DNA of 64,000 nt, taken from an uncultured Candidatus Saccharibacteria bacterium. GTDB taxonomy: Bacteria; Patescibacteriota; Minisyncoccia; UBA6257; 1-14-0-10-40-38. Position numbers and translations under genes: made by a program. The notes below the pieces were generated by a model, which had not been told where the DNA came from, did not search any database, and saw only the letters and a list, made by a program, of their open reading frames with translations. This document shows, piece after piece, positions 305-64,000 of the stretch (its first letter is position 1; each line of letters opens with the position of its first letter). The stretch is from NCBI GenBank assembly GCA_964543265.1, contig CAZIWN010000001.1:168644-232643 (forward strand), in the 5' to 3' direction.

Positions 305-1105
305 TTGTTAATTATTATTACTTATACTTTCTCTTATATGTTTTACGAATCATCTGATGTTTTTAAAAAAGAAGCCGGGCATGAAATTGATGGTGTTTGG
401 TATCCTCGTGTTACTAAAATTTTAGAAATAAAATCAAAACCAGCTTTATATAAATATTATGCAGAAGCTCCTAGCTTTGCGGTTGCGGAAGAAAGAACCA
501 AAAAATCAGCCGAAGAAGGGACATTAATTCACGAAGCTGTAGAAAAAATATTTGTGGGTGAAAAACCGCAAATTACAGACTCGATATCACCCGCCATTTC
601 AGCAGTTGAAGATTTTTTGTCAAAAAATAATTTTCAAGTAGAACGTGATCATGTTGAGAGAAAAGTTTTAAATAAAGAAGAAGCTTATTCTGGAACAATA
701 GACGCCATGGCTATTATAGATGGGAAATTCGGGGTTTTAGATATAAAAACATCTCAGTCTATATATAGAGACTATAATCTCCAAACCGCGGCTTATATGG
801 GTCAATTAACTAAAGAATTTCCACATTTAGAAACCAGATGGATTATGCGCGTTGATCAACAAAAAAACTGCTTAAGGTGCGGTGCCACATTAAGATCAAA
901 AGGAGGGAATGACAAAATTAAGTCTAAAGCTTTTAATTCACAAATTTGTGAAGAAAATAATCACGAATGGTCTCCTCTTAAGGGAATAGTTGAACTCAAG
1001 GAATTTCCATTTTGGAAAAGCGACTATAAGGCATTTTTAGCTGCCAAATATTTATGGCAATGGGAAAATGAATATATGCTTCGTAAAATAGGATATTTGA
1101 AATAA
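305..1105 (+). CDS. PD-(D/E)XK nuclease, RecB/Cas4-like, with C-terminal Cys cluster; true start may be the later Met (MFYESS...)
   Basis: Motifs GTIDAMAIIDGKFGVLDIKTS (D..D/E-x-K) and QTAAY (QxxxY), typical of RecB-family nucleases; a CxxC..C insert near the C-terminus. Confidence 0.55.
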   Translation: MLIIITYTFSYMFYESSDVFKKEAGHEIDGVWYPRVTKILEIKSKPALYKYYAEAPSFAVAEERTKKSAEEGTLIHEAVEKIFVGEKPQITDSISPAISAVEDFLSKNNFQVERDHVERKVLNKEEAYSGTIDAMAIIDGKFGVLDIKTSQSIYRDYNLQTAAYMGQLTKEFPHLETRWIMRVDQQKNCLRCGATLRSKGGNDKIKSKAFNSQICEENNHEWSPLKGIVELKEFPFWKSDYKAFLAAKYLWQWENEYMLRKIGYLK

Positions 1106-1375
1106 AAAAAACCGGGATCAAGAAGTGATGGCGGTAGTCTGTGGAGTTTGCGACGCAAGCTCCGACATCAGACCAAACCACTTCCCGTCCCAGTTGCGGA
1201 TCAAAAAAGAAAACAAAGAGGGGTGAGAGGCGAATCATGGATCCAGCCGGTGCCAATGGCGGATCAAGAGGAATCCATCGCCATGCTTTTTCCCGTGTGC
1301 CCGCGCCAGTCTTATCGATTCGTCCCGCAGAAGAAGCCCAAGCGGTTCACCTCCCACCCCTCTCGAGAACTAAGT
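1105..1375 (-). ncRNA. Candidate structured sRNA B: 14-bp closing helix (plus arms 1217-1230 / 1350-1363) followed by a U-rich tract; no convincing ORF
   Basis: On the minus strand 5' AGAGGGGUGGGAGG pairs with 3' CCUCUCACCCCUCU with one G.U wobble, which would be an A.C mismatch on the plus strand; minus-strand promoter-like TTCTTA-17-TATTAA near 1380-1410; GC-rich island. Confidence 0.3.
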
Positions 1376-3736: not shown

Positions 3737-4453
3737 GTGTTTTTTATGCAAGAAAAATCACTATATCCGATGCGCATAAATAAATATCTTGCCCTTAAGC
3801 AATACTCAACTCGCCGTGGAGCCGATGAGCTTATTCAAAGTAAAAAAGTTTTTATTAATGGAAAATTAGCCGTCTTAGGCGACAAGGTTAACGAAAATGA
3901 TAAGGTAGAGGTTCGTGGCATGGATACTTCAAAAAAATATCTCTATTTTGCTTACAACAAACCATATGGAGTAATCACCCACTCTTCGCAAGAAGGTGAA
4001 AATGAAATCAAAGACATATTCCCCGTCAAAGGAGTTTTTCCTATTGGAAGATTAGATAAGAACTCTAGCGGCCTAATAATTTTAACAAACGATGGCAGAA
4101 TAACTGATAAATTATTAAATCCAGAATACGAACACGAAAAAGAATATATAGTTAAAACAAGAGATAAAATCCGCTCCAATTTTAAAGAAAAAATGGAAGC
4201 CGGAGTTGATATTGATGGTTATATTACTAAAAAATGTAATGTGGATGTTTTAAACGATAATACTTTTAGAATAACCTTAACCGAAGGTAAAAAACATCAA
4301 ATAAGAAGAATGTGTGTGGCTCTTTTTAATGAAGTTTACGAGCTTAAAAGAACTAGAATTATGAATGTTGTTTTGGGTCGTCTCCAGGCCGGAGAGTATC
4401 GTCCCATAGAAGGAAAAGAGCTTTCGATTTTTTTGAAAAGTCTAGGTTTTTAA
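3737..4453 (+). CDS. Pseudouridine synthase, RsuA/RluB family (S4 domain plus catalytic domain)
   Basis: MRINKYLA S4-type N-terminus; catalytic motif GRLDKNSSGLIILTNDG. Confidence 0.8.
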   Translation: MFFMQEKSLYPMRINKYLALKQYSTRRGADELIQSKKVFINGKLAVLGDKVNENDKVEVRGMDTSKKYLYFAYNKPYGVITHSSQEGENEIKDIFPVKGVFPIGRLDKNSSGLIILTNDGRITDKLLNPEYEHEKEYIVKTRDKIRSNFKEKMEAGVDIDGYITKKCNVDVLNDNTFRITLTEGKKHQIRRMCVALFNEVYELKRTRIMNVVLGRLQAGEYRPIEGKELSIFLKSLGF

Positions 4454-4456
4454 ATT

Positions 4457-5458
4457 ATGAGATATAATATTAATATGCTTAAAAAAATATTTATTTTAAT
4501 TATTGTTACTTCTCTTGGTTTCGGTTCATTTTTTTTATTTAAAAAAATAAATAAAAACCAATCCAAAAATATTAAACAAATTGATAAGGTATCAAAAAAT
4601 ATATCCCCAATAACAGAAAAAGAAAACAAGGAGAATACCGTTAGCGATATTACTCCCCAAAAAGATACCTCATTAATTTTCTATGATGGATTTGAGCTTG
4701 GAGATAGATTGTCTGATGGTTGGAATAGTTTTTTAGTTCATGCCCCAACAAGCGACGAGCTTAAAAATTGTCCCGATTATCCAAATGGCTCAATGCAAAA
4801 ATATATTCTTTGCTCTCACGCCTTCGATCTAGTTACATCTCCGGTTCGCTCTGGCAAATACGCCATTAAATTTACAGTTAATCCCGGAGACACAGCAGTT
4901 CCAGGAGATGCAGAAAAATTAAAAGACAGAGCAGAGTTGCAGCGTAAAGAATTTGGAGATGAGGGTAAAAACGGAACAGAATTTTGGTACGGTTGGAGCG
5001 TTTTAATTCCTAAAGATTATAAATATGATCCAAACGTAGATACTCTTCAAATAATGGGTCAATTACACGTTTATGATCAAGGAGAAGCAACCATTTCCCC
5101 ACCAGCTTCAATAGAATATGGCATGAAAAACGGAGAGCACTTTATTTATGCCGATTATGGTCTTAAAAATATAAATAAAGCTCATATCGCCATTTCCCCT
5201 ATTAATTTGGGAGAGTGGATTGACGTTGCTATCCATATCAAATGGTCAAATGAAAACGATGGTTTTATAGAAGTTTATAAAGACGGCAAAGCCATAACTC
5301 CATTTAACGGAAAAGATTACAGGGTTTATGGACCAAATCTTCCCAATTCATATTCTCAAAGTTTTTTTAAGATCGGTCTTTATCGAGGACACGGAGTTAA
5401 AACAACAAATAGCGTCTACTACGACGAAGTTAAAATAAGTAAATCAAAATTCTTTTAA
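4457..5458 (+). CDS. Secreted concanavalin-fold protein, PL7 alginate-lyase-like
   Basis: N-terminal signal/TM; the three PL7 signature blocks are present: RAELQRKE (RxELR), QLH (QIH) and FFKIGLYRG (YFKAGxY). Confidence 0.45.
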   Translation: MRYNINMLKKIFILIIVTSLGFGSFFLFKKINKNQSKNIKQIDKVSKNISPITEKENKENTVSDITPQKDTSLIFYDGFELGDRLSDGWNSFLVHAPTSDELKNCPDYPNGSMQKYILCSHAFDLVTSPVRSGKYAIKFTVNPGDTAVPGDAEKLKDRAELQRKEFGDEGKNGTEFWYGWSVLIPKDYKYDPNVDTLQIMGQLHVYDQGEATISPPASIEYGMKNGEHFIYADYGLKNINKAHIAISPINLGEWIDVAIHIKWSNENDGFIEVYKDGKAITPFNGKDYRVYGPNLPNSYSQSFFKIGLYRGHGVKTTNSVYYDEVKISKSKFF

Positions 5459-5460
5459 AA

Positions 5461-5500
5461 AAAACACCCTCTCGTCCGCATGAACGAGGGGTGTTTTGTT
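5461..5500. terminator. Bidirectional intrinsic terminator between convergent genes
   Basis: ACACCCUCUCGUCCGCAUGAACGAGGGGUGU hairpin flanked by A-run and U-run. Confidence 0.6.
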
Positions 5501-6250
5501 TCATCGAGATTTTTGAGGCATTGCCTCCACCATTCTTCGAACCAACACTGGGTCAAGCTCTGTGTGAGACTTACTAACTCCCGTAGCAACGAGAAAGATA
5601 TCTGCATTCGGAAGAAATAAGTGTACATTTTCTGGAGTAATACCACTAGCGATAGCTAGTGCATGATCCCTAATTGCCTCTCTCATTACACGGATTTTTT
5701 CTGGATCCGGTGGTGATCCGGTTGCATCTCCGCTAGTAGTGATTACTTCCATAAATGGCATAGCAAGCTTGGCGACGCGAGTCAGATCTCTAACTGGAGC
5801 CTGATGCTTGAAGGCCACGCCTCCAAAAATCAGCGGCAGTCCAGGAACTCCTCCTCCTTTGATTGCCATATTAGCTCTTGCAATTCTGCAAGGATCTTCA
5901 TCATCTTCGCGAACGCCGCCATCATCAATCCAAACAGCAAAGATGTTGTGCGTTACTGCTAATCGAACCGCATCTTCACCCGAAAGATCCAGGAAGTTAA
6001 CTCCAATCTCCAATCCCTGCCCTTGGCCCTTCGATGCCCTAAACTCTTTTCTGACAGCAAAGAAATGTTGCAGAAGAGCTGCGTGCATCATCCCGTGGCC
6101 AATTAGAAAGACGCACTTCACGCCAGCATCAAAGGCAATTCTCACGTTTCTCATCACTTGTTGTCTATTCTCTGCGTGGATCACAATAGCCAATATATGG
6201 TTCGTTTGAGTTCCATTTCTTAAGCAGAAAGTTGCTCTGGGAAAAATCAT
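5501..6250 (-). CDS. BtpA/SgcQ-family TIM-barrel protein; GC-rich (about 55%) foreign-looking gene with its own promoter and RBS
   Basis: IGVNFLDLSG and ASGITPENV blocks resemble the BtpA/SgcQ family; minus-strand TTGATT-17-TATATT promoter, AGGAGG RBS then ATG at 6250; GC-rich codons unlike its neighbours. Confidence 0.55.
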   Translation of the reverse strand: MIFPRATFCLRNGTQTNHILAIVIHAENRQQVMRNVRIAFDAGVKCVFLIGHGMMHAALLQHFFAVRKEFRASKGQGQGLEIGVNFLDLSGEDAVRLAVTHNIFAVWIDDGGVREDDEDPCRIARANMAIKGGGVPGLPLIFGGVAFKHQAPVRDLTRVAKLAMPFMEVITTSGDATGSPPDPEKIRVMREAIRDHALAIASGITPENVHLFLPNADIFLVATGVSKSHTELDPVLVRRMVEAMPQKSR

Positions 6251-8897: not shown

Positions 8898-8951
8898 AAT
8901 GGAGTTGATCGAGGATTTACTAGTTTTTACCACAAGAAACGCTCGTTTCTG
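8898..8951 (+). CDS. 17-aa leader-like uORF (MELIEDLLVFTTRNARFW) in GC-rich minicassette F
   Basis: Starts about 10 nt after TTGACA (8865-8870) / TAATAT promoter; followed by a GGAAU..AUUCC hairpin and then the Cys-rich ORF; speculative. Confidence 0.2.
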
Positions 8952-9006
8952 GTGAAGACAGGAATATCCTCACATTCCGCTAAGCGCGGAAAGAAAGGCT
9001 CGTAAG

Positions 9007-9111
9007 ATGAATCTCTTCGGCAAGTCTCGTTTCGACCTGGTCGCCTCCATCTGCTCCGACTGCGTCAAGGGCGACCACTGCGGCGGTTGCAACTGCTGCA
9101 AGCATCGCTGA
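9007..9111 (+). CDS. 34-aa cysteine-rich peptide (MNLFGKSRFDLVASICSDCVKGDHCGGCNCCKHR), GC-rich minicassette F immediately downstream of lexA
   Basis: Upstream promoter with TTGACA at 8865-8870; a 17-aa leader-like uORF (8898-8951) lies between promoter and this ORF; RBS-like AAAGAAAGG; 7 Cys in 34 residues; terminator hairpin UAGCCAACUU..AAGUUGGCUA at 9118-9150; below the ORF-track length cutoff. Confidence 0.4.
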   Translation: MNLFGKSRFDLVASICSDCVKGDHCGGCNCCKHR

Positions 9112-9164
9112 GATCAAATAGCCAACTTTCATTAGCAGTGGAAGTTGGCTACAATTTTATTAAA

Positions 9165-9608
9165 ATGAAAAACAAAATAGATAAAAAAATAAAACCTACC
9201 GTTTTTATTCTGAATAAGTTAGACATAAAAACTACTGGCTCTTGCGAAGGGCATATTTCTTATGGTTCGCCTTGTCCATGGATAAAAATTTCAGAATCAA
9301 TTGATAATAATTTAAAAAAAGAAACGATTAAATTAATAAAAGAATTTTATAAAAATAAAAAAATAAATAAGAATATAAATCTAAAATTAAAGGATGGAAA
9401 ATCCGGATTTTGGCTTTATACTGGCCCTAAAAAAGATTTTGAAAATTGGCGAAAATTAGTTGATAAAACCGCAAAAACTATTTCCAAAGGTAAAACTCCG
9501 GAAAAATATATGATATCTGAAAAGGAAAAGGGATTTAGAAAAATTAATTTATTAAAATATCAGCAAGAAATAAAAGAATTTACAAAATTTTTAAAGACTA
9601 AAATCTAG
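9165..9608 (+). CDS. Hypothetical Lys-rich protein (track ORF 9087 has an upstream extension; probable start MKNKIDKK)
   Basis: AT-rich host-type codons begin at 9165; the upstream part of the track ORF is GC-rich terminator sequence of cassette F. Confidence 0.4.
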   Translation: MKNKIDKKIKPTVFILNKLDIKTTGSCEGHISYGSPCPWIKISESIDNNLKKETIKLIKEFYKNKKINKNINLKLKDGKSGFWLYTGPKKDFENWRKLVDKTAKTISKGKTPEKYMISEKEKGFRKINLLKYQQEIKEFTKFLKTKI

Positions 9609-9610
9609 TA

Positions 9611-11095
9611 TTATTTCTCTAAGTCTAAGACCTCATCAATTCTTATTTGATGCACGAATTCTTTAACGTGGCTAACTAAAACCATCGCTCCAGTAAATTG
9701 GCTCAATGCTTCGGCTATAACTGGGATATGCCTAAAGTTAATATGATTTGTCGGCTCATCCAAGATTAAAAGCCCAGGTTTTTGCAAAACCAACTGCGCA
9801 AAAGCAACTAATCCTTTTTGTCCTTCAGATAAATGTCCAACTTTTAATTTCATCATATCTCCGGTAATCAAAAATCCTGCCGCCACAGATCTCATCTGGT
9901 GATCATCTTTTATTTCCATCACCGAAATTAAAGTGTTATAAACCGTATCTTCAAAATTAAGCGTAGAAAAATCTTGCCTATAATAACCAACTTTAATTCC
10001 CGGCAATATTGTCGCTCCTTTAGCCGTCCCATTGGCGATAGATTCTAATAAGGTACTCTTTCCAATTCCATTTGGGCCTTGCAAGAGTAAATGCTGGCCT
10101 CTTTTTAGATATATCTCTGCTTTTTTAGTGACCGGCTTGTGGTCGTGAATGATCTTAAAAGAAGTAATCGTTAAAATTTTACCCACAATATCTTCCTGTG
10201 AAGGAATAATAAATTTCCTAATAGTTTTATCTTCTTGTCTGGTATCAACCTTTTCCTCTTCCATTTCTTCCACGGCATCTCTCATTCTTTTAGCCACCAA
10301 TCTCATCTTTCCCCCTTTATGAGCGAAGAAATTTGCCTTATCTTTATTTTCTTGGATTTCTTTTTCTAATTGGGCATTTTTTCTATTTTCTTTTTCAATT
10401 CTAGCAGCAATATCTTTAACCACATTAAAATAGTTTCCAGCATACTGCTCGATTTTCTTAGTAAACACATCTAAATATAAAACTCCATCTGAAAATGCAT
10501 TTAAAAAATCGGCATCGTGCGAAATTACCACGCAAGTCTTTTTATAATCAATCAAAAACTTAGTTAAATGCTCAATTCCCGCCTTATCAAGGTTATTTGT
10601 AGGCTCATCAAGTAATAATAAATCAGGATCTTGGATTAAAGCAGAAGCTAAAAGCAATCTTGCCTGTTGTCCGCCAGAAAAAGATTTAACAATCCTATCG
10701 TGTGGCGCTTTTAAATTAACAACCTCCAAAACCGCATCAATTCTTGGATCAAGGTCATAAATTTTATCTTTACCCCCAGCAATTTTTTTATAAGTGCTTT
10801 TAGAAAAAGATTTTTCAAAAAACTCTCTCACCGTCAAATCCATTTGATCTCTTGGAATAACTTGTCTAGCGGTCGCAATAGTGAGCCCATTATCCATACT
10901 TATTCTTCCCGTCTCTGTTGTAAATTCTCCGGTAATAAGTTTAAAGATTGTGCTCTTTCCGGCTCCATTTTGTCCCATTAAAGTCACCTTCATACCTTTT
11001 CTTAAACTAAAACTCACCTCATTTAAAATGGGTTTATTTGGGCCATATTCAAAACTAACTTCATCAAATCTTAAGATTACTTGGTCGTTTGCCAT
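9611..11095 (-). CDS. ABC-F family ATPase (tandem ABC domains, EttA/Uup-like translation factor)
   Basis: Two Walker A motifs (GQNGAGKST, GPNGIGKST) and two signature motifs (FSGGQQ, LSEGQK); the track N-terminal 28 aa (to 11179) read through a terminator hairpin; probable start MANDQVILRF at 11095. Confidence 0.85.
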   Translation of the reverse strand: MANDQVILRFDEVSFEYGPNKPILNEVSFSLRKGMKVTLMGQNGAGKSTIFKLITGEFTTETGRISMDNGLTIATARQVIPRDQMDLTVREFFEKSFSKSTYKKIAGGKDKIYDLDPRIDAVLEVVNLKAPHDRIVKSFSGGQQARLLLASALIQDPDLLLLDEPTNNLDKAGIEHLTKFLIDYKKTCVVISHDADFLNAFSDGVLYLDVFTKKIEQYAGNYFNVVKDIAARIEKENRKNAQLEKEIQENKDKANFFAHKGGKMRLVAKRMRDAVEEMEEEKVDTRQEDKTIRKFIIPSQEDIVGKILTITSFKIIHDHKPVTKKAEIYLKRGQHLLLQGPNGIGKSTLLESIANGTAKGATILPGIKVGYYRQDFSTLNFEDTVYNTLISVMEIKDDHQMRSVAAGFLITGDMMKLKVGHLSEGQKGLVAFAQLVLQKPGLLILDEPTNHINFRHIPVIAEALSQFTGAMVLVSHVKEFVHQIRIDEVLDLEK

Positions 11096-11119
11096 GTCGG
11101 GATATAATATAACATTTTT

Positions 11120-11175
11120 ATATAAAAGAAAATGGCCCGAGGAGTTGCTACCGTAGTAGCAGCCCCCAGGGCCAT
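11120..11175 (-). terminator. Compound intrinsic terminator of the GC-rich 154-aa gene
   Basis: Minus-strand AUGGCCC...GGGCCAU stem with inner GCUGCUAC..GUAGCAAC, followed by UUUUCUUUU. Confidence 0.5.
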
Positions 11176-11196
11176 TCATTGTTCTGCGGTTGTAGT

Positions 11197-11661
11197 TCAG
11201 GCGACCGCGAGCGCCTTGGCGAGAGCTGCACCGAGCGACCCACGGTGGATGCGATCCACCGAAGCCACGGCGGCCCTCAAATCACCGACCGGCATGTCCG
11301 GCCTGGAGACGATCTGCGCCCTGCGAACCGGCGCGACCACCTTCGGACGTTTGGGCTGCGCGACAGGGGCCGCCTTCAGGATCCGAAGCGGGCTCACCAC
11401 GAGGATGAAAACCCTCTTCATCACGTAGGCACCGATGATGTTGAGGCTCTGCACCTCCCACATCTCGCCCGCCTTCGGCTGGTAGGTGGCACCACGGTCG
11501 ATGACGACCTCGGCGACCCATCCGTCGGAGAGGTCCTCGAGTCGGCCCTTCAGCTGCGGCCCGCCCAGCGTGGTGTTGGTCCCGACGAAGAACGTGACCG
11601 CGAACCGCGGCGGCGTGATGTTCCGAATCGCCCGGTCGAGACGCGCATCGAGAAACGCCAT
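11197..11661 (-). CDS. GC-rich minicassette G: 154-aa hypothetical protein with Ala/Pro/Arg-rich C-terminus
   Basis: Minus-strand TTGACA-18-TATAAT promoter (plus 11736-11765), RBS GAGAGGG, own terminator; antisense ORFs in this island look like low-complexity junk. Confidence 0.4.
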   Translation of the reverse strand: MAFLDARLDRAIRNITPPRFAVTFFVGTNTTLGGPQLKGRLEDLSDGWVAEVVIDRGATYQPKAGEMWEVQSLNIIGAYVMKRVFILVVSPLRILKAAPVAQPKRPKVVAPVRRAQIVSRPDMPVGDLRAAVASVDRIHRGSLGAALAKALAVA

Positions 11662-11871
11662 CGGTATACCCTCTCGAAATCCTTCATTCCCTCAAGCGCC
11701 ATCTTGCGACAGCAGAAACTCAAGGTACTTCCTATATTATATCATAATATATCTATATTTGTCAATAGATATACAAATAACCCTTAATTTTAATGATTTT
11801 ATCAACTATTGACTTATATATTAATTATTGCTATAATTAGGAACAGAACAAGGTCAAAAAAGGAGAACGTC

Positions 11872-12090
11872 ATGATTCACTGGTTCCAGGTCTGCGACGT
11901 CGTGGAGGCACTTCTAGACATCACCACTCCCGGTTTTGGCAACGAAGGCACCACGATTTTCAAGGGAACACGGGGAATCGTGGAAAAAATTCTCCGTTCA
12001 GAAGGCAACCTCAGGGTTTCCTGGGAGTTGGGATCAAGTCAGACCATCAGCTTCGTCGTTGCTGAAGCTGGGGTCAAAGCAATCGGCTAG
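11872..12090 (+). CDS. GC-rich minicassette H: 73-aa hypothetical protein, divergent from G
   Basis: TTGACT (11809-11814)-17-TATAAT (11832-11837), RBS AAAGGAGAA, ATG 11872; compound terminator AGCGCCGC..GCGGCGCU + U-rich at 12094-12160. Confidence 0.45.
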   Translation: MIHWFQVCDVVEALLDITTPGFGNEGTTIFKGTRGIVEKILRSEGNLRVSWELGSSQTISFVVAEAGVKAIG

Positions 12091-12152
12091 TAAGAGACTA
12101 GCCGCCGCCAATAAGCGCCGCAAGTTCGAGCATATCGAACAAGCGGCGCTTT

Positions 12153-15100
12153 CTATTTCAATAAACTCTCTTCAAACGCCTTTATTCCGTTTATATCTTT
12201 CGAAAATTCAGATATATCTGGAAAATCCAGATTTTTTATTCTTTTATATATAACTTCTATCAATTTTCTCATTCTCTCAACCTCTTTATTTTCAATTTTC
12301 AATTCCAAATCAATTATTTTCCCTTTTTCTGGTTCTATAAATTCAATAATCCCTTTATTCATAAAATATTTACCGCCAAAGTCTTGGGAATTTTCAACTA
12401 ATAATTTATAAAATATAAGCTGATTCCTATATTTCCAAGCTTTAATTTTGTCGTATTTATCTTTTGGCTCCCAATCTTCTATATTTTTTCCAGTCTTAAA
12501 ATCAGTCACCACAATCTCAAAATTAATTAATCTCATTTTATCAATCTTCCCAGTTAGATGTGCTTCTCCTAAAACCACTCCCTGATTTTTAAAATTAAAT
12601 TCGATTTTATCTTGCGACAAGAAATCAGATTTTTTATTTTCATAAAACACAGCTAAAGATTTCTTACCCCTGCCAAGCATTAAATTAAAATCTTTCTCGT
12701 TTAATCTTTCATTTATTAATAACCTTTCAAATCTTAATAAAATTTCTTCTATATCTGGTAAAGATTCTTTATTTTTTAAATAATGATAAATAAATTGAAT
12801 TGTTCCATGGATTGCCGAGCCATAAGCCCCAGAAGGAGTTTTCGGTTCCGGAAACATTAATAAATTCTTTTCCAAAAAAGCTAATGGCCCCGCATCTGCC
12901 ACGTTTAAAAAGTTTTGAAAATGAGTCACGCTTAATTGATATTTTTCCAACATTTTATCAAGTAAAGCTTTTTCATTTTCAACTATTGGTTTAGCAAAAT
13001 TAACACTCCAATTATTAATAGCTAATTGCTCCGCGCTTTCTTTAAAATCATTAACGCTTATTTCTTTTTCCTCAATTAAGCTCTTTTCTCCAATTTCTGG
13101 ATGTAAGAATTCCAGTTTCACACTATCTTTTCCTCTGGAATCTTTTTTGTAATAAGTTAAATATAATTTTTTCTTTGTTCTAGTTATTGCTGTATAAAAC
13201 AATCTCAACTTATCATCTTGCGTATCTCCGGCAGGATTAATACTAAGATTCATAGGCATCGGTATATCTCGACTACTCCTTCCACTATTCCAAACATCTT
13301 CTTGGCAATTAATCACAAAAACCGCTTCAAACTCCAATCCTTTTGCTTTGTGTGCCGTTAATAATTGAACCGCTTCATTAGAATTAGAAAAAGCGCTTAT
13401 ATTATTAATTGGAATATTGTTTTTAATATGTAGGTCAAAAAACTCCAGCATATCTTTAACTTTCAATGGTTTTCCACGGTGATACTCTCTTAAACTTCCA
13501 AAAAAAGATTGCAAAGATGATAAGAATTTCAAATAATCAGCTCTTTTCTCTTTAAAAACAGATTCTCCAAAATAATAAGATTTAAAACCGGTATTAAATA
13601 TAGCCCTTGCCTCGCCAGAGCTGTAGGTAGAAGGCGGGTCATCATTATCTTCATCTGGCAAAACCAAATCAGTTGAACCTATAAGCTCATGAAGTATTTC
13701 TTCTGCGGTTTTATAATTTATTTTTCCGCTTAAATCTATAAAGAAGTTAGCTATTTCGCTAAATTTTCCTCCCATTTCCCTCATTATCGCTAACCACGGC
13801 TTATGTTCTGCCCTAGCTTTAATAGAAATATCCCAAATATTAACCCTATCTATTCCCCAAAACGGATAACTTAATATTTCCGGCAACAAATCATCCGCCT
13901 CTTCTTCTTTTCGCATTATAGAATTGGCAAATCTCGCCATAGTTACAAGTTGAACAATATGGGGTTCATTTAAAACATTTTGTTCTCTCTCATAAGAAAC
14001 TGGTATTTTTTTATTATGAAAATGTAAAACTAATTGCTCCAAATCTTTATGTTCGCGGGCAATAATCGCAATTTCATTTTTTGTAGTGCCGGATTTTATC
14101 AATCTTTCAACCTCCTCAGCAATCCAAAAATATTCAGCTTCTCTATTAATAAATTCCAAACCTAAAATCCCAGAATCATCTTTTTTATTATTCTCTGCAA
14201 TTAATTCTTTTTTTAAATCAGTAATTACATTTTCTAATCTATTCTTTCCTTTTTTAATAACTCCTAGCGCCACATTTAAAATTTCTTGCGTTGATCTATA
14301 GTTTTTCTTTAAGGCAATTAAATTTACGTCTTTATACTTCTTTTTAAAATCAAAAATATTAGATATTTCTGCCCCCTGAAATCTATAGATCGCCTGATCA
14401 TCGTCTCCAACAACCATTATATTTGGCCTACCTTCATTTACATCATTATCAGTCAATAAATGAAGTATTTTCATCTGGGCATCATTAGTGTCCTGAAATT
14501 CATCCACTAATATATATTGATATCTTTCCTGCAGATCTAATTTTACGCCGATGTTGTTCTGGAGCATTGTAATCGTGTCCAAAATCATATCGTTGTAGTC
14601 GTAATAATTATTTTTTTTCATACTACCCAAATAATCCTCATATATTTGAGCTAAAGCATTCATTTTTTCCAGATTAACAAAATCTTCCAGATGAGTTTTT
14701 TTGTCATCTCCCTTAACGGTCCAATCTTTTTTCCATTCGGTTATATATGTAGTGGATTTATCTTCTTCTGATTTCTGCAACGCCACTGAAAGCGAGTTAA
14801 CTAAAACATTATTATATTCTCCAGTATTTTTATTCTGAATATTCTTTATTAATTCATAAATACCAGGAAACATTTTTTTTGAAACCCTATCATTAAAAAC
14901 CTCGCCGATTAATTTATCAGAAAACTCTATCTCTTTTTTATTTTTCTCCAGTATTTTTTTAAATTCAGCAGGCGAAATTCCCGCTTTTTTTAGATTCTCA
15001 ATCGCTTTTTTGGTTTTATATAAATAAGTAAATTGCTCCTCGTGCTTTGATGCTAGTGGATTTCTATAATCTAAAGATTTAAAAACATCTTCTAAAATTT

Positions 15101-19631: not shown

Positions 19632-20045
19632 ATGATATTTTCAAAAACACTTATCCTAATTTCATTATTGGGATTAATCAATGCTCTTTACTTAACCTAC
19701 AAACACTACTTCACAAAAAAGCCACTAGTCTGTTTAGTCGGCGAAAATTGCGAAGCAGTTCTTGATAGTAAATGGAGTCACATGTTCGGAGTTAGGAATG
19801 AAATTCTCGGAGTTTTATTTTATGGTGGAATCTTTACCGGATCTTTAATTTTATTTTTCTATCCACTATTAATACCAAATTTATTATTCTATTTATTTAT
19901 AGGAAGCATTACCGGGGTTTTATTTTCTGGATTTTTAGTAGCGCTTCAAAAATTCGTCATTCATAATTTTTGTTTTTATTGTTTAATCTCCGCCGGATTA
20001 AGCCTATTACTTTTCATTAATTGCGCTTACTTATTTTTATATTAA
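19632..20045 (+). CDS. VKOR-family membrane protein (second copy)
   Basis: Loop cysteines CLVGENC and CFYC active site in a TM helix. Confidence 0.55.
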   Translation: MIFSKTLILISLLGLINALYLTYKHYFTKKPLVCLVGENCEAVLDSKWSHMFGVRNEILGVLFYGGIFTGSLILFFYPLLIPNLLFYLFIGSITGVLFSGFLVALQKFVIHNFCFYCLISAGLSLLLFINCAYLFLY

Positions 20046-20067
20046 AAGAGGGGTCCTGATGGACCCC
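20046..20067. terminator. Bidirectional terminator
   Basis: AGAGGGGUCC UGAU GGACCCCUU hairpin shared by the convergent plus-strand VKOR gene and the minus-strand GC-rich operon. Confidence 0.6.
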
Positions 20068-20259
20068 TTATGAGAACTGAAGACGAAGAACCTGAACGAA
20101 CACACATGGATCAAGATGCTTCTTCCTCCTTGCCTTGAGACAGGCTCTAAACCTAGCCTGTCTTTCGGACACAGCAGTCGACTCAACGGTAACAATTTCT
20201 CCGCTGGGACACCTCACGGAAGCGGAGAAGTTGCGCCACACAGCCGGTGCACGCTTCAT
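20068..20259 (-). CDS. GC-rich minicassette J gene 2: 63-aa basic protein (MKRAPAVWRNF...), translationally coupled to gene 1
   Basis: ATGA stop/start overlap at plus 20256-20259; RBS GGGAGGGGAG inside gene 1; the track ORF has a 7-aa upstream extension. Confidence 0.4.
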   Translation of the reverse strand: MKRAPAVWRNFSASVRCPSGEIVTVESTAVSERQARFRACLKARRKKHLDPCVFVQVLRLQFS

Positions 20260-20471
20260 GGAATGAATCTCCCCTCCCAAAGAGCAAACTCTGGGGACCT
20301 AGAGATGACGTCAATCGCCACCCAGTCAGAGCTTGGAACTTCGTTTTCTGTTTTGAATTTCTCCAAAACAAAGACTCTAGCCCATTTTTCAGACGAAGCA
20401 CAAACCCTCACCTTATAAGTGCATCTCCTCCATGAAACAAGGGCAGACCAAGCGACCGATCTTCTGGCCAT
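20256..20471 (-). CDS. GC-rich minicassette J gene 1: 71-aa protein (MARRSVAWSALVSWRRCTYKV...)
   Basis: Minus-strand TTACAT / CATAAT promoter and RBS AAGGAGATGAGG then ATG at 20471; its stop overlaps the next start as ATGA. Confidence 0.4.
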   Translation of the reverse strand: MARRSVAWSALVSWRRCTYKVRVCASSEKWARVFVLEKFKTENEVPSSDWVAIDVISRSPEFALWEGRFIP

Positions 20472-20596
20472 CTTGGACTCCTCATCTCCTTATTGTACTA
20501 ATATAATTATGGCACATGTAAATATATCTCATCAAGATCTTGTTTCTATATAAACAATAGGTATAATCTTAGTATTAATTTAAAAAATAAAACCAA

Positions 20597-27055: not shown

Positions 27056-27231
27056 CTATTTAAATCTAACAGAAATAAAAGAAATATTAAAATTTATAAA
27101 TTACAGCAAATTTCCCAAATCTTTATTTTTTAGTAAATACAAGGCATTCCGAAGAAGCGATATTTTAAGCCTAGCGCATATCGCGAGGAGGAATAACGAA
27201 GTAGTTACTAATAAAGATAAAGATTACAAAA

Positions 27232-28140
27232 TTACCACTTGCCGGAGGAACCGCCACCGCCCGATCGCCCCCCTCCAAATCCACCAAAGCCACCCCCGCC
27301 TCCAAACTTTCCACCACCAAAACCTCTCCCCCTCATCCACCAAGGTATTGTTGCTCCCATCTCCTTATAAGCCCTATATCTCTTTGAGACAAAATAATCA
27401 AAAATAAGTCCGGCAAGCGATAATCCAATAATCGACAAAATTCCAACATATAGGAATCCAAAAATAATACCCAAAACAGCTCCAAATCCTCCCCCTAAAA
27501 TACCCCCCAGCCACCAAGATTTTGATCTTCCTAAAATATTTGCTAATAAATTAACAACAAAAATTATTAAAAAAATAAAGAAAAATGGATCTATATTTTT
27601 AAAAAAAGAATATTTACTAAAATCAGTACTTTCCGTAACTATTCCCTCAGTTTCAAATCCGTTTGATATTTTAGAAATCATTCCCAAAATTCCATTTTTT
27701 ATTCCCAAAAAATAACTTCCATTTTTAAATGATGGAATAATTAAATTTTGAATGATCAGATGAGAATCAGCATCGGTTAAATATGCTTCTAATCCATAAC
27801 CCACCTCTATTCTTAATTCTCTTTCCTTTATAGCAACCAGCAAAAGCGCTCCATTATCTTTATTTCTTTGCCCAACTCCCCAATCCTTAAATAATTTTTC
27901 AGAAAAATTTTCTATAGTATCTCCATTAAGAGTATTAATAGTAGCCACCGAAATTTGATTACCAGTTTTATCGCTAAAATTATAAAGAATTGTCTCTAGA
28001 GCATTTTTTTCTTGATCACTTAAAACGCCGGCATAATCATTAATAAATCCGGTGGGCTTTCCCGGAAAATCATAAGCAAAAACCAGTCTTGGTATAACTA
28101 AGGCCAAGCCGAAAATTACAATCTTCAGCTTTAAATTCAT
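27232..28140 (-). CDS. TPM-domain protein (YgcG-like) with TM and Gly-rich C-terminal tail
   Basis: Signal peptide; TPM block GFINDYAGVLS..EKNALE; TM helices; GGGFGGFGGG tail. Confidence 0.7.
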   Translation of the reverse strand: MNLKLKIVIFGLALVIPRLVFAYDFPGKPTGFINDYAGVLSDQEKNALETILYNFSDKTGNQISVATINTLNGDTIENFSEKLFKDWGVGQRNKDNGALLLVAIKERELRIEVGYGLEAYLTDADSHLIIQNLIIPSFKNGSYFLGIKNGILGMISKISNGFETEGIVTESTDFSKYSFFKNIDPFFFIFLIIFVVNLLANILGRSKSWWLGGILGGGFGAVLGIIFGFLYVGILSIIGLSLAGLIFDYFVSKRYRAYKEMGATIPWWMRGRGFGGGKFGGGGGFGGFGGGRSGGGGSSGKW

Positions 28141-35127: not shown

Positions 35128-35217
35128 TGGCGGAGAGGGGGAGATTCGAACTCCCGGTACCCTTTCGGATACACAGTCTTTCCAGGACTGCGCACTAGAC
35201 CGCTATGCGACCTCTCC
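35128..35217 (-). tRNA. tRNA-Ser (anticodon GGA), long variable arm, CCA encoded
   Basis: RC reads GGAGAGGUCGCAUAGCGGUCUAGUGCGCAGUCCUGGAAAGACUGUGUAUCCGAAAGGGUACCGGGAGUUCGAAUCUCCCCCUCUCCGCCA; anticodon loop CUGGAAA. Confidence 0.9.
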
Positions 35218-39323: not shown

Positions 39324-39376
39324 TCTGTTAGTAAGCCATAATTGACTTTATATAACATACTTGCTATTATAGACGT

Positions 39377-39860
39377 CAGCACCTGTGACCGTCCTTTGTT
39401 CTGGATTTCCAATTAGGCAGACAGTTCGGGCGATGCTGTCTATGCGGAGATTCGAATGAGTCGGTCTGTTACGCTGTCTGGTCTCGTTCTTTTTCACAGC
39501 GAGGCTTGGAGGAGCCTCTTCTATGCGCGCACCGTGTTGATCCGTTTCCCGAGGGTCGCTCTGAAGTTCCTTCCCACTCCTCGCTTTGCGAGAACTTTCT
39601 GGCAACTGATCGTTCAGGGCTGGAGACTGCTTTGCAGGATCCTTGATTCTGAACCCGTTACCATGATGTTCCTGGCACTCCTGCTGCTCGGGGTCGTCAC
39701 GATGCGTTCGTGCGATCCGACGGCCGAAGAGCTGAGAGCGATGGAGTCTTCTTCCGGCACCCTCCTTCCGTGATCTGATCGGAGTCGACATCTTCTCATG
39801 CGTAGCATCTGGGTAGTGAGCGCCTTCAAACCTGCGGGTTCTGGGGGCGTTTTTTTTAGA
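39377..39860 (+). other. GC-rich minicassette M: promoter TTGACT (39377-39382)-17-TATTAT (39400-39405), about 430-nt GC-rich transcript, U-rich terminator about 39835-39858. Possible 105-aa ORF 39456-39773 (RBS GCGGAGA; single TM-like segment)
   Basis: Coding versus non-coding unresolved; the antisense 174-aa ORF (39348-39872) is low complexity and has no room for a promoter. Confidence 0.3.
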
Positions 39861-39880
39861 AAAATTGACCAATTAATTAA

Positions 39881-41625: not shown

Positions 41626-41633
41626 TTTGAAAT

Positions 41634-42131
41634 CTATTCGCCCATCACCTCAAGACGATCGAACAGAGACTTGAACCAAGAGAGAGCACCAACTTTTCTT
41701 GCAACCCTATTACCCATACCAGGGCGCATCTGACAAAAAGAGACAGCAAAAGCAATAGTTATTGCAGAGTCTATCTCGGGAGAAATCCCAACAAAGGCCA
41801 CAACGAGTCCACTATGACTCACAGCTCGGGATTCCGCGGGTGGAAGAGCAGCTGAAGATCCAGCGACCCTAACAACCATCTCTCTTGCGACAATACAACT
41901 TCGCGAAGCTGTTGGATTATGAGGAATTGTTCCAATCCTCGCGCAGATAACTTCTTGGCCTGTATCACTATTAGCAAGACAGAAGTATCCGCCACTGACT
42001 TCACCAAGCTTGAATACCCTTCTTGCCTGCTGGAAAATCATGCCAATCCGCGAAACAGCATCTGCAGAATTAGCAACAATAGCGACAGTAGTAGCCCCAT
42101 CTCTCTCAGCGACCATCGTCGGTTGAGACAC
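41634..42131 (-). CDS. GC-rich minicassette N: approximately 166-aa hypothetical protein, possibly Ntn-hydrolase/proteasome(HslV)-like (GATTVAIV after a short propeptide)
   Basis: Minus-strand TTGACC-17-TAATAT promoter abutting the upstream gene stop; RBS AAGGGGAGGA then GTG (42131); the track ORF starts at an upstream TTG; weak similarity to HslV RRV..G..AG..D block. Confidence 0.35.
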   Translation of the reverse strand: MSQPTMVAERDGATTVAIVANSADAVSRIGMIFQQARRVFKLGEVSGGYFCLANSDTGQEVICARIGTIPHNPTASRSCIVAREMVVRVAGSSAALPPAESRAVSHSGLVVAFVGISPEIDSAITIAFAVSFCQMRPGMGNRVARKVGALSWFKSLFDRLEVMGE

Positions 42132-42214
42132 GCCGATCCTCCCCTTTTTGGCAGGTTTTTTGGAAACTTCAAAGAGCTGAAACAATATTAAATTAATAAA
42201 ATAAACTGGTCAAT

Positions 42215-43064: not shown

Positions 43065-43146
43065 GATATTTGACAATAATATAACAGTATGCTATTATCC
43101 AGATAGTTCCGAAAGTTAAAAATCGAGCAGGAAAGCGAGGTTAGAA

Positions 43147-43320
43147 ATGGATACGCAAAAACTCGTGGAACTCGTACGCCAATGCACAAAAATCGTCGTT
43201 AGAGAAGGGCAGAATACCACTGGCGATATGTCCGCTGTGATTCCCTTGCTACAAGCTGCGCTGAGAGATTTGCCCTCCGATCAGGTCCAGAAGGCCATTC
43301 TCGAATACAACAATGATTAA
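43147..43320 (+). CDS. Cassette O: 57-aa hypothetical protein (MDTQKLVELVRQCTKIVVREGQNTTGDMSAVIPLLQAALRDLPSDQVQKAILEYNND)
   Basis: TTGACA (43070-43075)-17-TATTAT (43093-43098), RBS AAAGCGAGG, ATG 43147; dual-hairpin terminator 43362-43435; GC-rich. Confidence 0.45.
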   Translation: MDTQKLVELVRQCTKIVVREGQNTTGDMSAVIPLLQAALRDLPSDQVQKAILEYNND

Positions 43321-43502
43321 GACAAGTAATACTGCCTAGGAACGTCCTGATATTTCGATATGTGTCGCGCAAAGCGACACGCCCCCCCCCGTTGGAGGAA
43401 TTTCGATGATTTCTCCCGGGGGCTTCGTTTTTTTATCTCAAATCGGGAATATAAATATATTCATTTTGTCGTGCTATAATATTTCTAATATCCGATACTG
43501 TT

Positions 43503-43631
43503 CGGAGCAAAAATAAAATACCCCTTCTGGGGTTGTTTTATTTTTGTTTTGAAATGGATCGAACCGAAGGTCAAAATCACGCAGTGATGAGATTTCGACT
43601 GAAAGGAGAAGCGATCCCTACCTCCGGAGCC
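43503..43631 (+). repeat. Direct repeat copy 2 (129 bp), identical to 42936-43064
   Basis: Same sequence, including the terminator and the 21-bp tRNA 3'-end mimic. Confidence 0.75.
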
Positions 43632-43700
43632 ACTTATTTGACAATATTATTTATATATGATATTCTTTTTATAGAACAATTTCCAACAAGGAGAGAAGAG

Positions 43701-43898
43701 GTGCACCGCTATCTCATTACAATTTCGTTCACGCCCGGTCGAGATGGATCTGAGAGAACGACGGAGTGTTACGAAGTGAGTATGGAGCAGCCGATTCGTT
43801 CCATGGATCAACTCAATGCAGAAATCAGGAAGCTCTGCGATGTAAAAAAGATTGCTGGGCACGTGACCCCGATTGCGTTTTCTCGATTCTCCGAATAA
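43701..43898 (+). CDS. Cassette P: 65-aa hypothetical protein (GTG start; VHRYLITISFTPGRDGSERTTECYEV...)
   Basis: TTGACA (43638-43643) promoter homologous to cassette O, RBS AAGGAGAG, GTG 43701; the track ORF 43533-43898 runs spuriously through the repeat. Confidence 0.4.
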   Translation: MHRYLITISFTPGRDGSERTTECYEVSMEQPIRSMDQLNAEIRKLCDVKKIAGHVTPIAFSRFSE

Positions 43899-43920
43899 CT
43901 CAAACCAGAGGAGACGTCCC

Positions 43921-44094
43921 GTGAATCAGTCCAGCGGACAGGAACCGAAAGTTCAACAGGAAAAGCCGCGACAAGAATTCCCTCCCTGCACCAACAAGGA
44001 ATGCGAGTGCTATGAGTCTTCTGCTCGTGTCGGGCCAGCTGCATCGATCCCGCGCGCCTACTACTGCTACGAGTGCTGCAACATCTTCTTCTGA
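43921..44094 (+). CDS. Cassette Q: 57-aa cysteine-rich peptide (..PPCTNKECECYESSARVGPAASIPRAYYCYECCNIFF)
   Basis: RBS GAGGAG 6 nt before GTG 43921; 7 Cys in the C-terminal 36 residues; terminator 44110-44177 homologous (about 78%) to cassette O terminator. Confidence 0.4.
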   Translation: MNQSSGQEPKVQQEKPRQEFPPCTNKECECYESSARVGPAASIPRAYYCYECCNIFF

Positions 44095-44206
44095 TGCGAA
44101 TTCTAATATATCGCGCAAAGCGCGAAACCCCCGGTTAGAGAAATTTAGATGATTTCTCACGGGGGATTCTTTTTTTGTCTCAAATGTAGTGTGATATTAT
44201 TACAAT

Positions 44207-57315: not shown

Positions 57316-57648
57316 ATGGCAAAAAGATTATATTTCGGAAACCTTTCATGGGACACAACTGATAAGAGTCTCATGGCTGCGTGTTCTGAATTCGGCACCG
57401 TTACTTCAGCGACTGTCATCACTGATAAAATGACTGGCAGATCAAAAGGTTTCGGATTCGTCGAAATGTCATCCGACGCAGAAGCTGATAAAATTATCGC
57501 TTCTATGAACGGAAAAAACTTCGAAGGAAGAGACATCACCGTTAATGAAGCCAGACCAAAAGAAGAGAGACCAGAAGGCGGCTTCGGAGGTGGAAGAGGC
57601 AGAATGGGCGGTGGAATGGGTGGAGGAATGGGAAGAGGAAGATATTAA
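57316..57648 (+). CDS. RRM-type RNA-binding protein with Gly-rich tail
   Basis: RNP2 LYFGNL and RNP1 KGFGFVEM; about 165-nt structured leader. Confidence 0.85.
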   Translation: MAKRLYFGNLSWDTTDKSLMAACSEFGTVTSATVITDKMTGRSKGFGFVEMSSDAEADKIIASMNGKNFEGRDITVNEARPKEERPEGGFGGGRGRMGGGMGGGMGRGRY

Positions 57649-57687
57649 TCTCCGCTTCACAGACCAAAATCTGTTTAAAAAAACAAC

Positions 57688-57712
57688 CCCGATTAATCGG
57701 GGTTGTTTTTTT
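57688..57712 (+). terminator. Intrinsic terminator
   Basis: AACAACCCCGAUUAAUCGGGGUUGUUUUUUU. Confidence 0.6.
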
Positions 57713-61103: not shown

Positions 61104-61147
61104 TTTAATATTGAAAAATATTTTTAAAAAAGCTATAAATATAAATA

Positions 61148-61335
61148 GTCCTTCAAACCAGTTCAGGGAGAATAAGCTTGGGGAAAAGACGGGTTCGCCG
61201 CGAAGCACGAATGTCTGGCATCTGGAAGCGATTCACTTGCAGGCTGATACGGACAATCGCGTGGGCTAGGGTTCGCCCCTAACCAAGCTTCGCAAACCCC
61301 TCTCGCAGCCGAAAGACCTTCGGCTGCTTTTTTTT
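61148..61335 (+). ncRNA. Candidate structured sRNA R: closing helix AAGCUUGGGG...CCCCUAACCAAGCUU, then terminator module
   Basis: TTGAAA-17-TATAAA promoter (61112-61140); no ORF; terminator GCAGCCGAAAGACCUUCGGCUGC + U8 (61292-61335). Confidence 0.3.
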
Positions 61336-61410
61336 ACTTGAAAAATAACTAATATAATGCTAAAAAACATATAGCCCTTCAATTTCATCGCCAACCAGGA
61401 GGAATTCAAA

Positions 61411-61755
61411 TTGACCCAAAAGAAGAAAGGCGGCGAAATTAAAACAATTAAGCCGCTGATGGATCCTCTTACTGATCCCGCAACTGCAGGAATCAGAAGA
61501 CAGATTCAGGTACAGATCCGAAGGCTTCAACAAGGAGACGGCGTCGAGAAAACTGGTCCGAAACAGACCAAGCATAAGTGCGCGACACCTCGTTGCAAGG
61601 GACGCCTCGTCGAAGACATCTGCCATGAGTTCGACCCCACTTCGGGACCACCTATTATCGGTCCCGGCTCCAGATCACAGTTCAACAGAGTTTCTCGTGG
61701 CTTCTACTGCAACACCTGCGGCGTAAAATATCAGTTCCCTCCAAAGAAGAAATGA
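61411..61755 (+). CDS. GC-rich minicassette S: 114-aa basic zinc-ribbon protein (TTG start)
   Basis: RBS CAGGAGGA 7 nt before TTG 61411; C..C(x3)C and C..C pairs; flanked by duplicated terminator module. Confidence 0.4.
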   Translation: MTQKKKGGEIKTIKPLMDPLTDPATAGIRRQIQVQIRRLQQGDGVEKTGPKQTKHKCATPRCKGRLVEDICHEFDPTSGPPIIGPGSRSQFNRVSRGFYCNTCGVKYQFPPKKK

Positions 61756-61769
61756 GCTCTTGCTCATTT

Positions 61770-61812
61770 CGCAAACCCCTCTCGCAGCCGAAAGACCTTC
61801 GGCTGCTTTTTA
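61770..61812 (+). terminator. Second copy of the 45-nt terminator module CGCAAACCCCUCUCGCAGCCGAAAGACCUUCGGCUGCUUUUU
   Basis: Near-identical to 61292-61335. Confidence 0.6.
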
Positions 61813-63694: not shown

Positions 63695-63779
63695 ACATAC
63701 ATATTACTTTAAAACCCTTAAAAACAAAAAAGCGCCGTATCCGAATTGGATCGTGCGCCTTTGAAATCATTTGATGCCG

Positions 63780-64000
63780 TAACAACACAAGCAGGTGCCA
63801 CAATGGCCATGCCCCTCAAAACAAAGCCTGCATGGACGAGAACGAATGTGAAACAAGACAAGCAAATGCGCCAAGAGTTTCATTTTTCATTCCCCCTGAA
63901 AAGAATCGAAACGATTCAGATCAGCTCCTCACAGCAAGGACATCCTCCGCAATGCCTGCCCCTCTTCGGGTCACAGTCCGAACAGAAACCGAAGCCAAAA
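63780..64000 (+). other. GC-rich island at the window edge; open reading frame from ATG about 63804 (MAMPLKTKPAWTRTNV...) continues beyond the window
   Basis: Composition switch like the other minicassettes; truncated, so cannot be assessed. Confidence 0.15.

Follow-up and report, generated by a model that had tools for sequence, protein, structure and literature searches.

Type II toxin-antitoxin (TA) systems such as RelBE, MazEF, HicAB and ParDE are small co-transcribed gene pairs with a 4-nucleotide (nt) overlap and a promoter and terminator of their own. Foreign composition and fast evolution also mark them, as does an upstream product with an acidic C-terminal part next to a downstream product that is very basic. 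Their toxins arrest growth unless the cognate antitoxin rescues the cell, and fall into recognized superfamilies or folds such as RelE/ParE, MazF/CcdB, PIN, HicA, Doc/Fic, HipA, GNAT and Zeta. The antitoxins combine a DNA-binding domain (RHH, HTH, AbrB/SpoVT or Phd/YefM) with a tail that binds the toxin. Palindromic operators in the promoter serve autoregulation, and the distribution of these systems is patchy, mobile and often multi-copy. Of the two partners, the antitoxin usually evolves faster. The HicA toxin has about 60 amino acids (aa) and a fold like that of double-stranded RNA-binding domains, with its elements in the order alpha-beta-beta-beta-alpha. Lineage-restricted orphan small-protein genes are a different kind of precedent; they are short, compositionally atypical and uncatalogued, and are found by codon-level comparison. 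Here we describe a locus that shares features with both, a two-gene cassette between a VKOR gene and an FKBP gene on contig CAZIWN010000001.1 of an uncultured Candidatus Saccharibacteria bacterium. It lies within the stretch of 64,000 nt that was analyzed as a whole, which we call the window. Comparison of the cassette across three lineages shows a genuine, self-contained bicistronic operon, made up of a promoter, a Shine-Dalgarno (SD) sequence, a first open reading frame (ORF1), an internal SD, an ATGA junction, a second open reading frame (ORF2) and a terminator, and encoding two small proteins under purifying selection.

Layout of the cassette

The cassette consists of two overlapping small ORFs of 71 and 63 aa on the minus strand, joined by an ATGA in which the TGA stop of ORF1 (20258-20256) overlaps the ATG start of ORF2 (20259-20257). 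Its elements, in the coordinates of the window, are as follows.

20471-20256, minus strand: ORF1, an open reading frame of 71 aa with an ATG start; the TGA stop at 20258-20256 is included
20259-20068, minus strand: ORF2, an open reading frame of 63 aa with its ATG at 20259-20257; the TAA stop at 20070-20068 is included
20259-20256, minus strand: ATGA stop/start overlap; the surrounding CCATGAA is invariant in the three lineages, and the substitution phase shifts by one base here
20506-20535, minus strand: promoter-like site from a consensus scan, with a -35 element TTGATG (20535-20530), an 18-nt spacer and an extended -10 element TGcCATAAT (hexamer at 20511-20506)
20478-20491, minus strand: SD region of ORF1 read from the sequence, with AAGGAG (20491-20486) and GAGGAG (20483-20478); the related contig L083 has CAGGAG at an equal distance
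20269-20278, minus strand: internal SD for ORF2 read from the sequence, GGGAGGGGAG, within the 3' end of ORF1 and 9 nt before the ORF2 ATG
20039-20068, minus strand: intrinsic terminator, a hairpin AGGGGTCC-ATCA-GGACCCCT (20068-20049) of 8 pairs, 6 of them G-C, followed by CTTTTAATAT

The convergent gene downstream encodes VKOR (PF07884) and ends at 20045, and the divergent gene upstream encodes FKBP (PF00254). An earlier note, made from the sequence alone, had described this region as a GC-rich two-gene operon of foreign composition with an ATGA overlap, a ribosome-binding site ahead of each ORF and a basic 63-aa product. These descriptions held. Both ORFs, their coordinates and the coupling layout were found again and are conserved in three lineages, and the SD sequences before ORF1 and ORF2 were all located. 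The island at 20039-20501 has 48.8% GC, compared with 34.4% for the 64-kb window, and the GC content at third codon positions (GC3) of the two ORFs in the window is 0.48-0.52, well above the 0.21-0.28 of the flanking genes. ORF2 has a predicted isoelectric point (pI) of 11.2, and ORF1 is basic as well, with a pI of 9.6. The arrangement exceeds chance, being kept as coding sequence in two other lineages.

Codon-level evidence from three lineages

We reached orthologous loci through homologues of the adjacent VKOR gene. The comparison set comprised the window, contigs L083, L084 and L085 (79% VKOR identity) and contigs L086 and L087 (82%), which together represent three lineages. In L083 and L084, a matching VKOR-FKBP gap of about 550 nt holds the cassette, and the L087 contig extends from VKOR into the cassette and breaks off within ORF1. 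Neither frame is interrupted in the window, in L083/L084 or in L087, and both SDs and the overlap are retained. Alignment of the roughly 400 nt of ORF sequence revealed a sole indel, which is 3 nt long, in frame and located in ORF2.

Substitutions are concentrated at the third codon position in both genes. For the best pairs, the counts at codon positions one, two and three are 15/10/32 in ORF1 (p = 0.0009; dN/dS, defined below, about 0.15) and 11/13/41 in ORF2 (p = 2e-6). The wobble phase shifts by one base at the ATGA junction, significantly so for each of the three pairs (p = 7e-4, 7e-4 and 3e-3). The ratio of nonsynonymous to synonymous substitution rates (dN/dS) is 0.14-0.48 for ORF1. For ORF2, the proportions of changed nonsynonymous (pN) and synonymous (pS) sites are 0.20-0.38 and 0.79-0.87 in the two comparisons that involve the window; the signal is weaker between L083 and L087, where pN is 0.35, pS 0.50 and dN/dS 0.59. 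Neighboring host genes have dN/dS values of 0.03-0.15. ORF1 and ORF2 evolve 2-5 times faster than their neighbors, and the downstream ORF2 evolves faster than the upstream ORF1. Because the frames are open, the overlap and SDs are conserved, the indel is in frame, the wobble phase shifts at the junction and dN/dS lies below 1, these comparisons indicate that ORF1 and ORF2 are two real protein genes under purifying selection, coupled in their translation. The coding signal of the second ORF in homologues, on which the earlier note had made its proposal depend, is present.

The ORF2 ortholog of L083 (L083 5449-5685) has 50-55% protein identity to the other two and weak periodicity (19/25/28). 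This suggests that the L083 copy is under relaxed or diversifying selection.

Orphan, fast-evolving proteins missed by gene finders could also be the remnants of decaying foreign DNA, with ORFs that drift neutrally, and the dN/dS of 0.59 and weak periodicity of ORF2 in the L083-L087 comparison fit such a history. We consider it very unlikely. The frames, SDs, overlap, -10 element and terminator survive a difference of 35-74% at four-fold sites, dN/dS for ORF1 and in most comparisons of ORF2 lies clearly below 1, and streamlined genomes have kept the cassette.

GC-rich islands in AT-rich genomes are usually structured RNAs, and our first hypothesis was a structured non-coding RNA gene in which the ORFs are incidental. 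The locus has several traits of such a gene: a GC-rich segment of about 450 nt that lies in an AT-rich genome and has a promoter and a terminator, a minus-strand folding energy of -168 kcal/mol (z = -4.1 relative to dinucleotide shuffles), and no ORF placed here by any gene caller. The folding energy is nevertheless not below that of synonymous-codon permutations (z of -0.2 to -1.0), and the covariation term of RNAalifold, at +0.49, gives no net support. Rfam 15 returned zero matches at E <= 1 and ARAGORN no tmRNA. Codon periodicity with a phase shift at the ATGA is a pattern that RNA constraints cannot produce, and the sole indel is in frame. Taken together, these results largely refute the RNA hypothesis and leave it extremely unlikely.

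An antisense frame of 100-114 aa on the plus strand (20116-20418 in the window) spans both ORFs, is open in the window, L083 and L087, and has a wobble position that coincides with that of ORF1 in the ORF1 half. Within the ORF2 half, variation instead peaks at antisense codon position 1, and the phase shift is incompatible with one continuous frame. The open antisense frame is a by-product of the sense genes: when these are resampled synonymously, 13-43% of the resamples keep an antisense frame of equal or greater length. L083 lacks the start codon, and the antisense ORF directly follows the VKOR hairpin without a promoter or SD of its own. The resampling and the phase shift largely refute this candidate, whose probability we regard as close to nil. 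Even with their probabilities combined, the RNA, antisense-gene and decay readings are very improbable.

Expression signals

The earlier note had credited the cassette with a strong promoter. Shuffled sequence gives matches to the promoter consensus at least as often (5.4 expected, 5 found here). The match by itself says little, but the TGnCATAAT element of the promoter-like site is retained in an alignment with L083, which lends the site some support. Of the two purine-rich motifs upstream of ORF1, GAGGAG, 6 nt ahead of the ATG, is the likelier SD. The ORF2 SD is kept in both relatives, where it reads GAGAGGA (L083) and GAGAGGAG (L087).

The terminator hairpin is immediately next to the ORF2 stop codon, and 4 nt separate it from the end of the convergent VKOR gene at 20045. 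Its stem is kept by compensatory changes, as GGGCCCC/GGGGCCC in L083 and GGGCCTC/GAGGCCC in L087. The earlier note had called the terminator bidirectional and shared with the VKOR gene, but only the minus-strand side has a T-run; the VKOR side continues TTATGAG, and bidirectional termination is thus only partly supported.

Absence from gene catalogues

Neither protein has a detectable relative in current collections. For ORF1, a word search found no homologue among 5.8 billion clustered proteins, and phmmer found none among 1.84 billion representatives, read exhaustively. A profile search with ORF2 found no homologue among 5.8 billion proteins. A collection of 15 billion sequences contains no predicted protein for ORF1, ORF2, the antisense ORF or the L083 orthologs; ORF1 and ORF2 are missing from it because their composition differs from that of the host genome. 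No gene was called in the VKOR-FKBP gap of the contigs identical to the window (L001 and L002) or across the island in the related contigs L083-L087. Genes missed by callers bias conclusions of 'no homologue'.

Nucleotide-level searches gave the same picture. Scans of JGI metagenomes and IMG/VR with back-translated patterns, tblastn against 50,697 phage records and blastn against 72,556 plasmids yielded no match, and six-frame hidden Markov model (HMM) searches of the window and all fetched loci yielded no further copy. A scan of GTDB genome contigs with the FKBP neighbor reached unrelated phyla only, and a VKOR scan of JGI metagenomes found nothing. At the level of families, there is no Pfam match at E <= 1 for the window proteins or at E <= 10 for the orthologs, and NCBIfam, PADLOC and PHROGs gave no significant match (best PADLOC E = 0.02, for one ortholog only), in keeping with the earlier remark that neither family was recognizable. 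Among PDB sequence profiles, the best match of ORF2 is a 19-residue stretch of DNMT3B (E = 0.005), with no stretch passing alone, and nothing falls below E = 0.8 for ORF1.

Distribution and origin

The cassette occupies one fixed VKOR-FKBP site in all three lineages in which it was found, where VKOR identity is at least 79%. It is absent from the VKOR site in the nine lineages sampled at 57-61% VKOR identity, a sample that did not include a scan of GTDB genomes for the cassette; these relatives carry other genes beside VKOR and no detectable cassette copy. Contigs of the 57-61% relatives (L088-L100) have 44-50% GC and the cassette-bearing clade 34-37%, a large compositional split among related Paceibacteria-type lineages.

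The two ORFs are atypical for their hosts wherever they occur, with a GC3 of 0.48-0.54 in all three lineages versus 0.20-0.32 for host genes. At strict four-fold sites with a conserved amino acid, GC content (GC4) is 0.39 versus 0.24 for the host (p = 5e-6), and four-fold divergence is similar in the two, at 0.49 for the cassette and 0.44 for host genes. We considered a special force that holds GC3 at equilibrium, but that idea was overstated. At four-fold sites the excess is smaller than at third positions, though clear (0.39 versus 0.24), and host sites are unsaturated, so that incomplete amelioration suffices.

Informative-site counts give a near-star tree of the three lineages with no breakpoint along VKOR, ORF2 and ORF1, and we therefore rejected recombination between lineages inside the cassette. 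No repeats flank the cassette, and neither blastn nor HMM searches found paralogues in the 64-kb window, its other GC islands included. The simplest history would be that the ancestor of the AT-rich clade acquired the cassette once, from a donor of higher GC content, with vertical descent and partial amelioration since then.

The two proteins

ORF1 has a pI of 9.6-10.4 across orthologs and is rich in tryptophan, with five conserved W residues. Its N-terminal half is basic and its C-terminal half acidic, and the latter contains the best-conserved stretch of the whole cassette, ENEVPSSDWVAIDVI. ORF2 has a pI of 10-12 and a net charge of +6 to +9.5 across orthologs. A single-sequence AlphaFold2 model of ORF2 has a mean predicted local distance difference test score (pLDDT) of 74.8 and consists of a beta-beta-alpha-beta domain, with strands at 10-16 and 22-28, a helix at 32-46 and a strand at 53-60.

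The shapes nearest to the ORF2 model are archaeal ribosomal protein LX/eL20, T7 Gp2, YkzG, phi29 p56 and many uncharacterized small phage proteins. LX/eL20, Gp2 and YkzG are small domains associated with RNA or RNA polymerase, which would accord with binding of nucleic acid. The alignment with LX/eL20 has a template modeling (TM) score of 0.71 and a root-mean-square deviation of 1.6 A over 55 columns, with E = 0.05 and 11% identity. A profile search of PDB sequences gave no LX/eL20, Gp2 or YkzG match for ORF2, and Foldseek found nothing for ORF1. Structure prediction followed by Foldseek, the check put forward in the earlier note, thus provided a modeled fold for ORF2 but no significant match for either protein. 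A by-eye impression that the two proteins are paralogues was rejected (hhalign probability 0.2%, P = 0.37).

Possible functions

As the likeliest mode of action we propose, tentatively, that ORF1 and ORF2 form a non-toxic heteromeric binder of nucleic acid or another polyanion, a reading with at best an even chance of being right and perhaps rather less. ATGA coupling would make the two proteins in fixed proportion, which suggests that they work together as a heteromeric complex. A very basic beta-beta-alpha-beta ORF2 and a basic-then-acidic ORF1 suggest that such a small complex could bind nucleic acid or another polyanion, and the acidic ORF1 tail may contact or mask the basic ORF2. The fast evolution of both genes, and of ORF2 above all, suggests that the role is accessory, tied to conflict or to lineage-specific regulation, rather than core housekeeping.

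Several points count against this account at its different levels. The coding signal is uneven, since periodicity within the ORFs is non-significant in 2 of 6 tests, and with three lineages in total, residue-level inference is weak. The single acquisition rests on synteny, not on a dated tree, and incomplete amelioration is a sufficient, not a proven, cause of the GC excess. On the side of function, basic charge alone is no proof of nucleic-acid binding. The AlphaFold2 single-sequence model of ORF1 is unreliable (pLDDT 61), beta-beta-alpha-beta is a very common small topology, and Foldseek against PDB and BFVD returned nothing at E <= 1e-3 for ORF2 (best E = 0.05).

The same architecture could instead belong to a novel type II TA system, with ORF1 as antitoxin, ORF2 as a small basic toxin and the pair retained by addiction; the basic N-terminal part of ORF1 would bind DNA, and its acidic C-terminal tail would neutralize the toxin. 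The cassette pairs two small genes, served by a promoter and terminator of their own, through an ATGA overlap conserved in three lineages; its composition is foreign, the pair evolves faster than its neighbors, and it is present in one clade and absent from the same site in relatives. A basic-then-acidic ORF1 with a conserved C-terminal half, beside a very basic ORF2, is likewise what a TA pair could look like. ORF1 has no DNA-binding domain match, and its model is too poor to judge; its charge layout is compatible with an antitoxin. The earlier note had suggested a type II TA or another two-component selfish module, but beyond the architecture we found nothing that supports a TA function: no family, fold or conserved operator, and no sign of mobility in the three lineages sampled.

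The differences from type II TA systems are considerable. No toxin or antitoxin family was matched in Pfam, NCBIfam, PADLOC or PHROGs and no TA fold in Foldseek, and the cassette shows no relationship to a toxin or antitoxin superfamily in sequence or fold. At 63 aa, ORF2 falls below the length of most type II toxins, and the net charge of ORF1 is basic. There is no conserved operator palindrome; the palindromes present are AT-rich and not the same in the window as in L083. In three lineages the locus is fixed and single-copy, without a mobility signature, and was seen at one site in a narrow clade; it is the downstream ORF2, the would-be toxin, that evolves faster than the upstream ORF1. On balance, we judge a TA system unlikely.

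Another two-component conflict module from a phage or mobile element, for example an inhibitor of host or competitor machinery, such as a protein that binds RNA polymerase like Gp2 or mimics DNA like p56, or else a pair with a role in defence or anti-defence, would also account for the foreign composition and fast evolution. The presence of T7 Gp2, YkzG, phi29 p56 and small phage proteins among the shapes nearest to ORF2 is consistent with such an origin. None of these structural matches is significant, however, and there is no sequence match in the 50,697 phage records, the 72,556 plasmids or IMG/VR, nor a notable PADLOC match. The cassette has no neighboring phage or mobile-element genes. 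Gp2 and p56 are generally known to be acidic, whereas ORF2 is strongly basic. We therefore regard this possibility as distinctly doubtful, and retain the non-toxic polyanion-binding complex as our tentative reading.

Beyond its biochemical role, the pair may found a new two-component family specific to an AT-rich Paceibacteria clade, either a new TA or conflict system or a heterodimeric nucleic-acid-binding factor; this is a claim that we would not expect to hold, though it deserves consideration. Patescibacteria, the candidate phyla radiation (CPR), have tiny genomes full of genes of unknown function, and a conserved accessory module among them is a candidate for a part in the symbiotic lifestyle. 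If the family is new, it would exemplify a broader group of GC-rich islands with small genes in these genomes, at least some of them missed by gene callers, and protein databases would lack parts of this gene content.

Other GC-rich islands in the window

About 13 GC-rich islands (44-52% GC) are scattered through the window, which has 34% GC. Those listed by position are:

1-256, GC-rich island
5459-6200, GC-rich island
8920-9173, GC-rich island
11825-12192, GC-rich island
27153-27403, GC-rich island
39353-39880, GC-rich island
41628-42192, GC-rich island
43118-43475, GC-rich island
43669-44172, GC-rich island
57336-57706, GC-rich island
61131-61818, GC-rich island
63712-64000, GC-rich island

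Candidate ORFs in several of these islands had no Pfam match (39348-39872 and 41634-42185 on the minus strand; 43533-43898, 43147-43320 and 61411-61755 on the plus strand). The last of these is Cys-rich and zinc-ribbon-like. The islands at 43118-43475 and 43669-44172 share a 65-nt direct repeat with 80% identity. A 110-aa protein encoded at 57316-57648, in a GC-elevated island, has a clear eukaryote-type RNA recognition motif (RRM_1, E = 7.5e-20).

The most extreme island, at 11089-11751, has 59-67% GC. On its minus strand, 11197-11661 encodes a 154-aa ORF with a GC3 of 0.85 and no Pfam match; in a public collection, this protein is a singleton cluster from the same 307-kb NCBI contig. The island looks like recent foreign DNA from a high-GC donor.

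Two further regions concern RNA. An 865-nt region of 47% GC at 1078-1942, just upstream of tRNA-Gln, has no long ORF and no Rfam match at E <= 1. Its minus strand (1925 to 1695) is predicted to form a rod with the closing stem GGGGAGGGGGAG/CUCCCUCCCU (z = -2.8), followed by a hairpin and a U-run, and its plus strand (about 1480-1625) forms a rod with the closing stem GGAGGCGGGACU/AGUCCCGCCUCC (z = -4.5). These rods may be unannotated small RNAs, possibly 6S-like. At 35128-35217 on the minus strand, ARAGORN predicts a tRNA-Ser (GGA); the Rfam scan of the whole window at gathering thresholds lists only the other two tRNAs.

GC-rich islands with small ORFs are also present in the relative L083, at 752-1290 and 4234-4509. 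They contain ORFs of 88 aa (1010-1276, minus strand; GC3 0.51) and 80 aa (4271-4513; GC3 0.41), both of which were called as genes and have no Pfam family. GC-rich small genes thus look like a recurring trait of the clade, and with many similar islands in the window and in a relative, the annotation blind spot may be systematic in this clade.

Comparison with known systems

Of the type II TA systems, HicAB was compared in particular. The cassette gives no Pfam match to HicA (PF07927) or HicB (PF15919/UPF0150), and the predicted beta-beta-alpha-beta order of ORF2 is not the alpha-beta-beta-beta-alpha order of HicA.

The proteins most like ORF2 in predicted topology and size are LX/eL20, T7 Gp2 and the Firmicute RNA polymerase epsilon subunit (YkzG), although the likeness is non-significant, with Foldseek E values of 0.05-0.5, identities of 11-20% and, for Gp2, a TM score of 0.56. 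Ribosomal proteins are typically basic, as is ORF2, but ORF2 evolves far too fast for a ribosomal protein such as LX/eL20. For none of the three does the gene overlap with that of a partner resembling ORF1.

The orphan pair is a new family in an ordinary kind of arrangement. Like lineage-restricted orphan small-protein genes, ORF1 and ORF2 are short, compositionally atypical and uncatalogued, and came to light only through codon-level comparison; they differ from such genes in forming a conserved coupled pair with complete expression signals.

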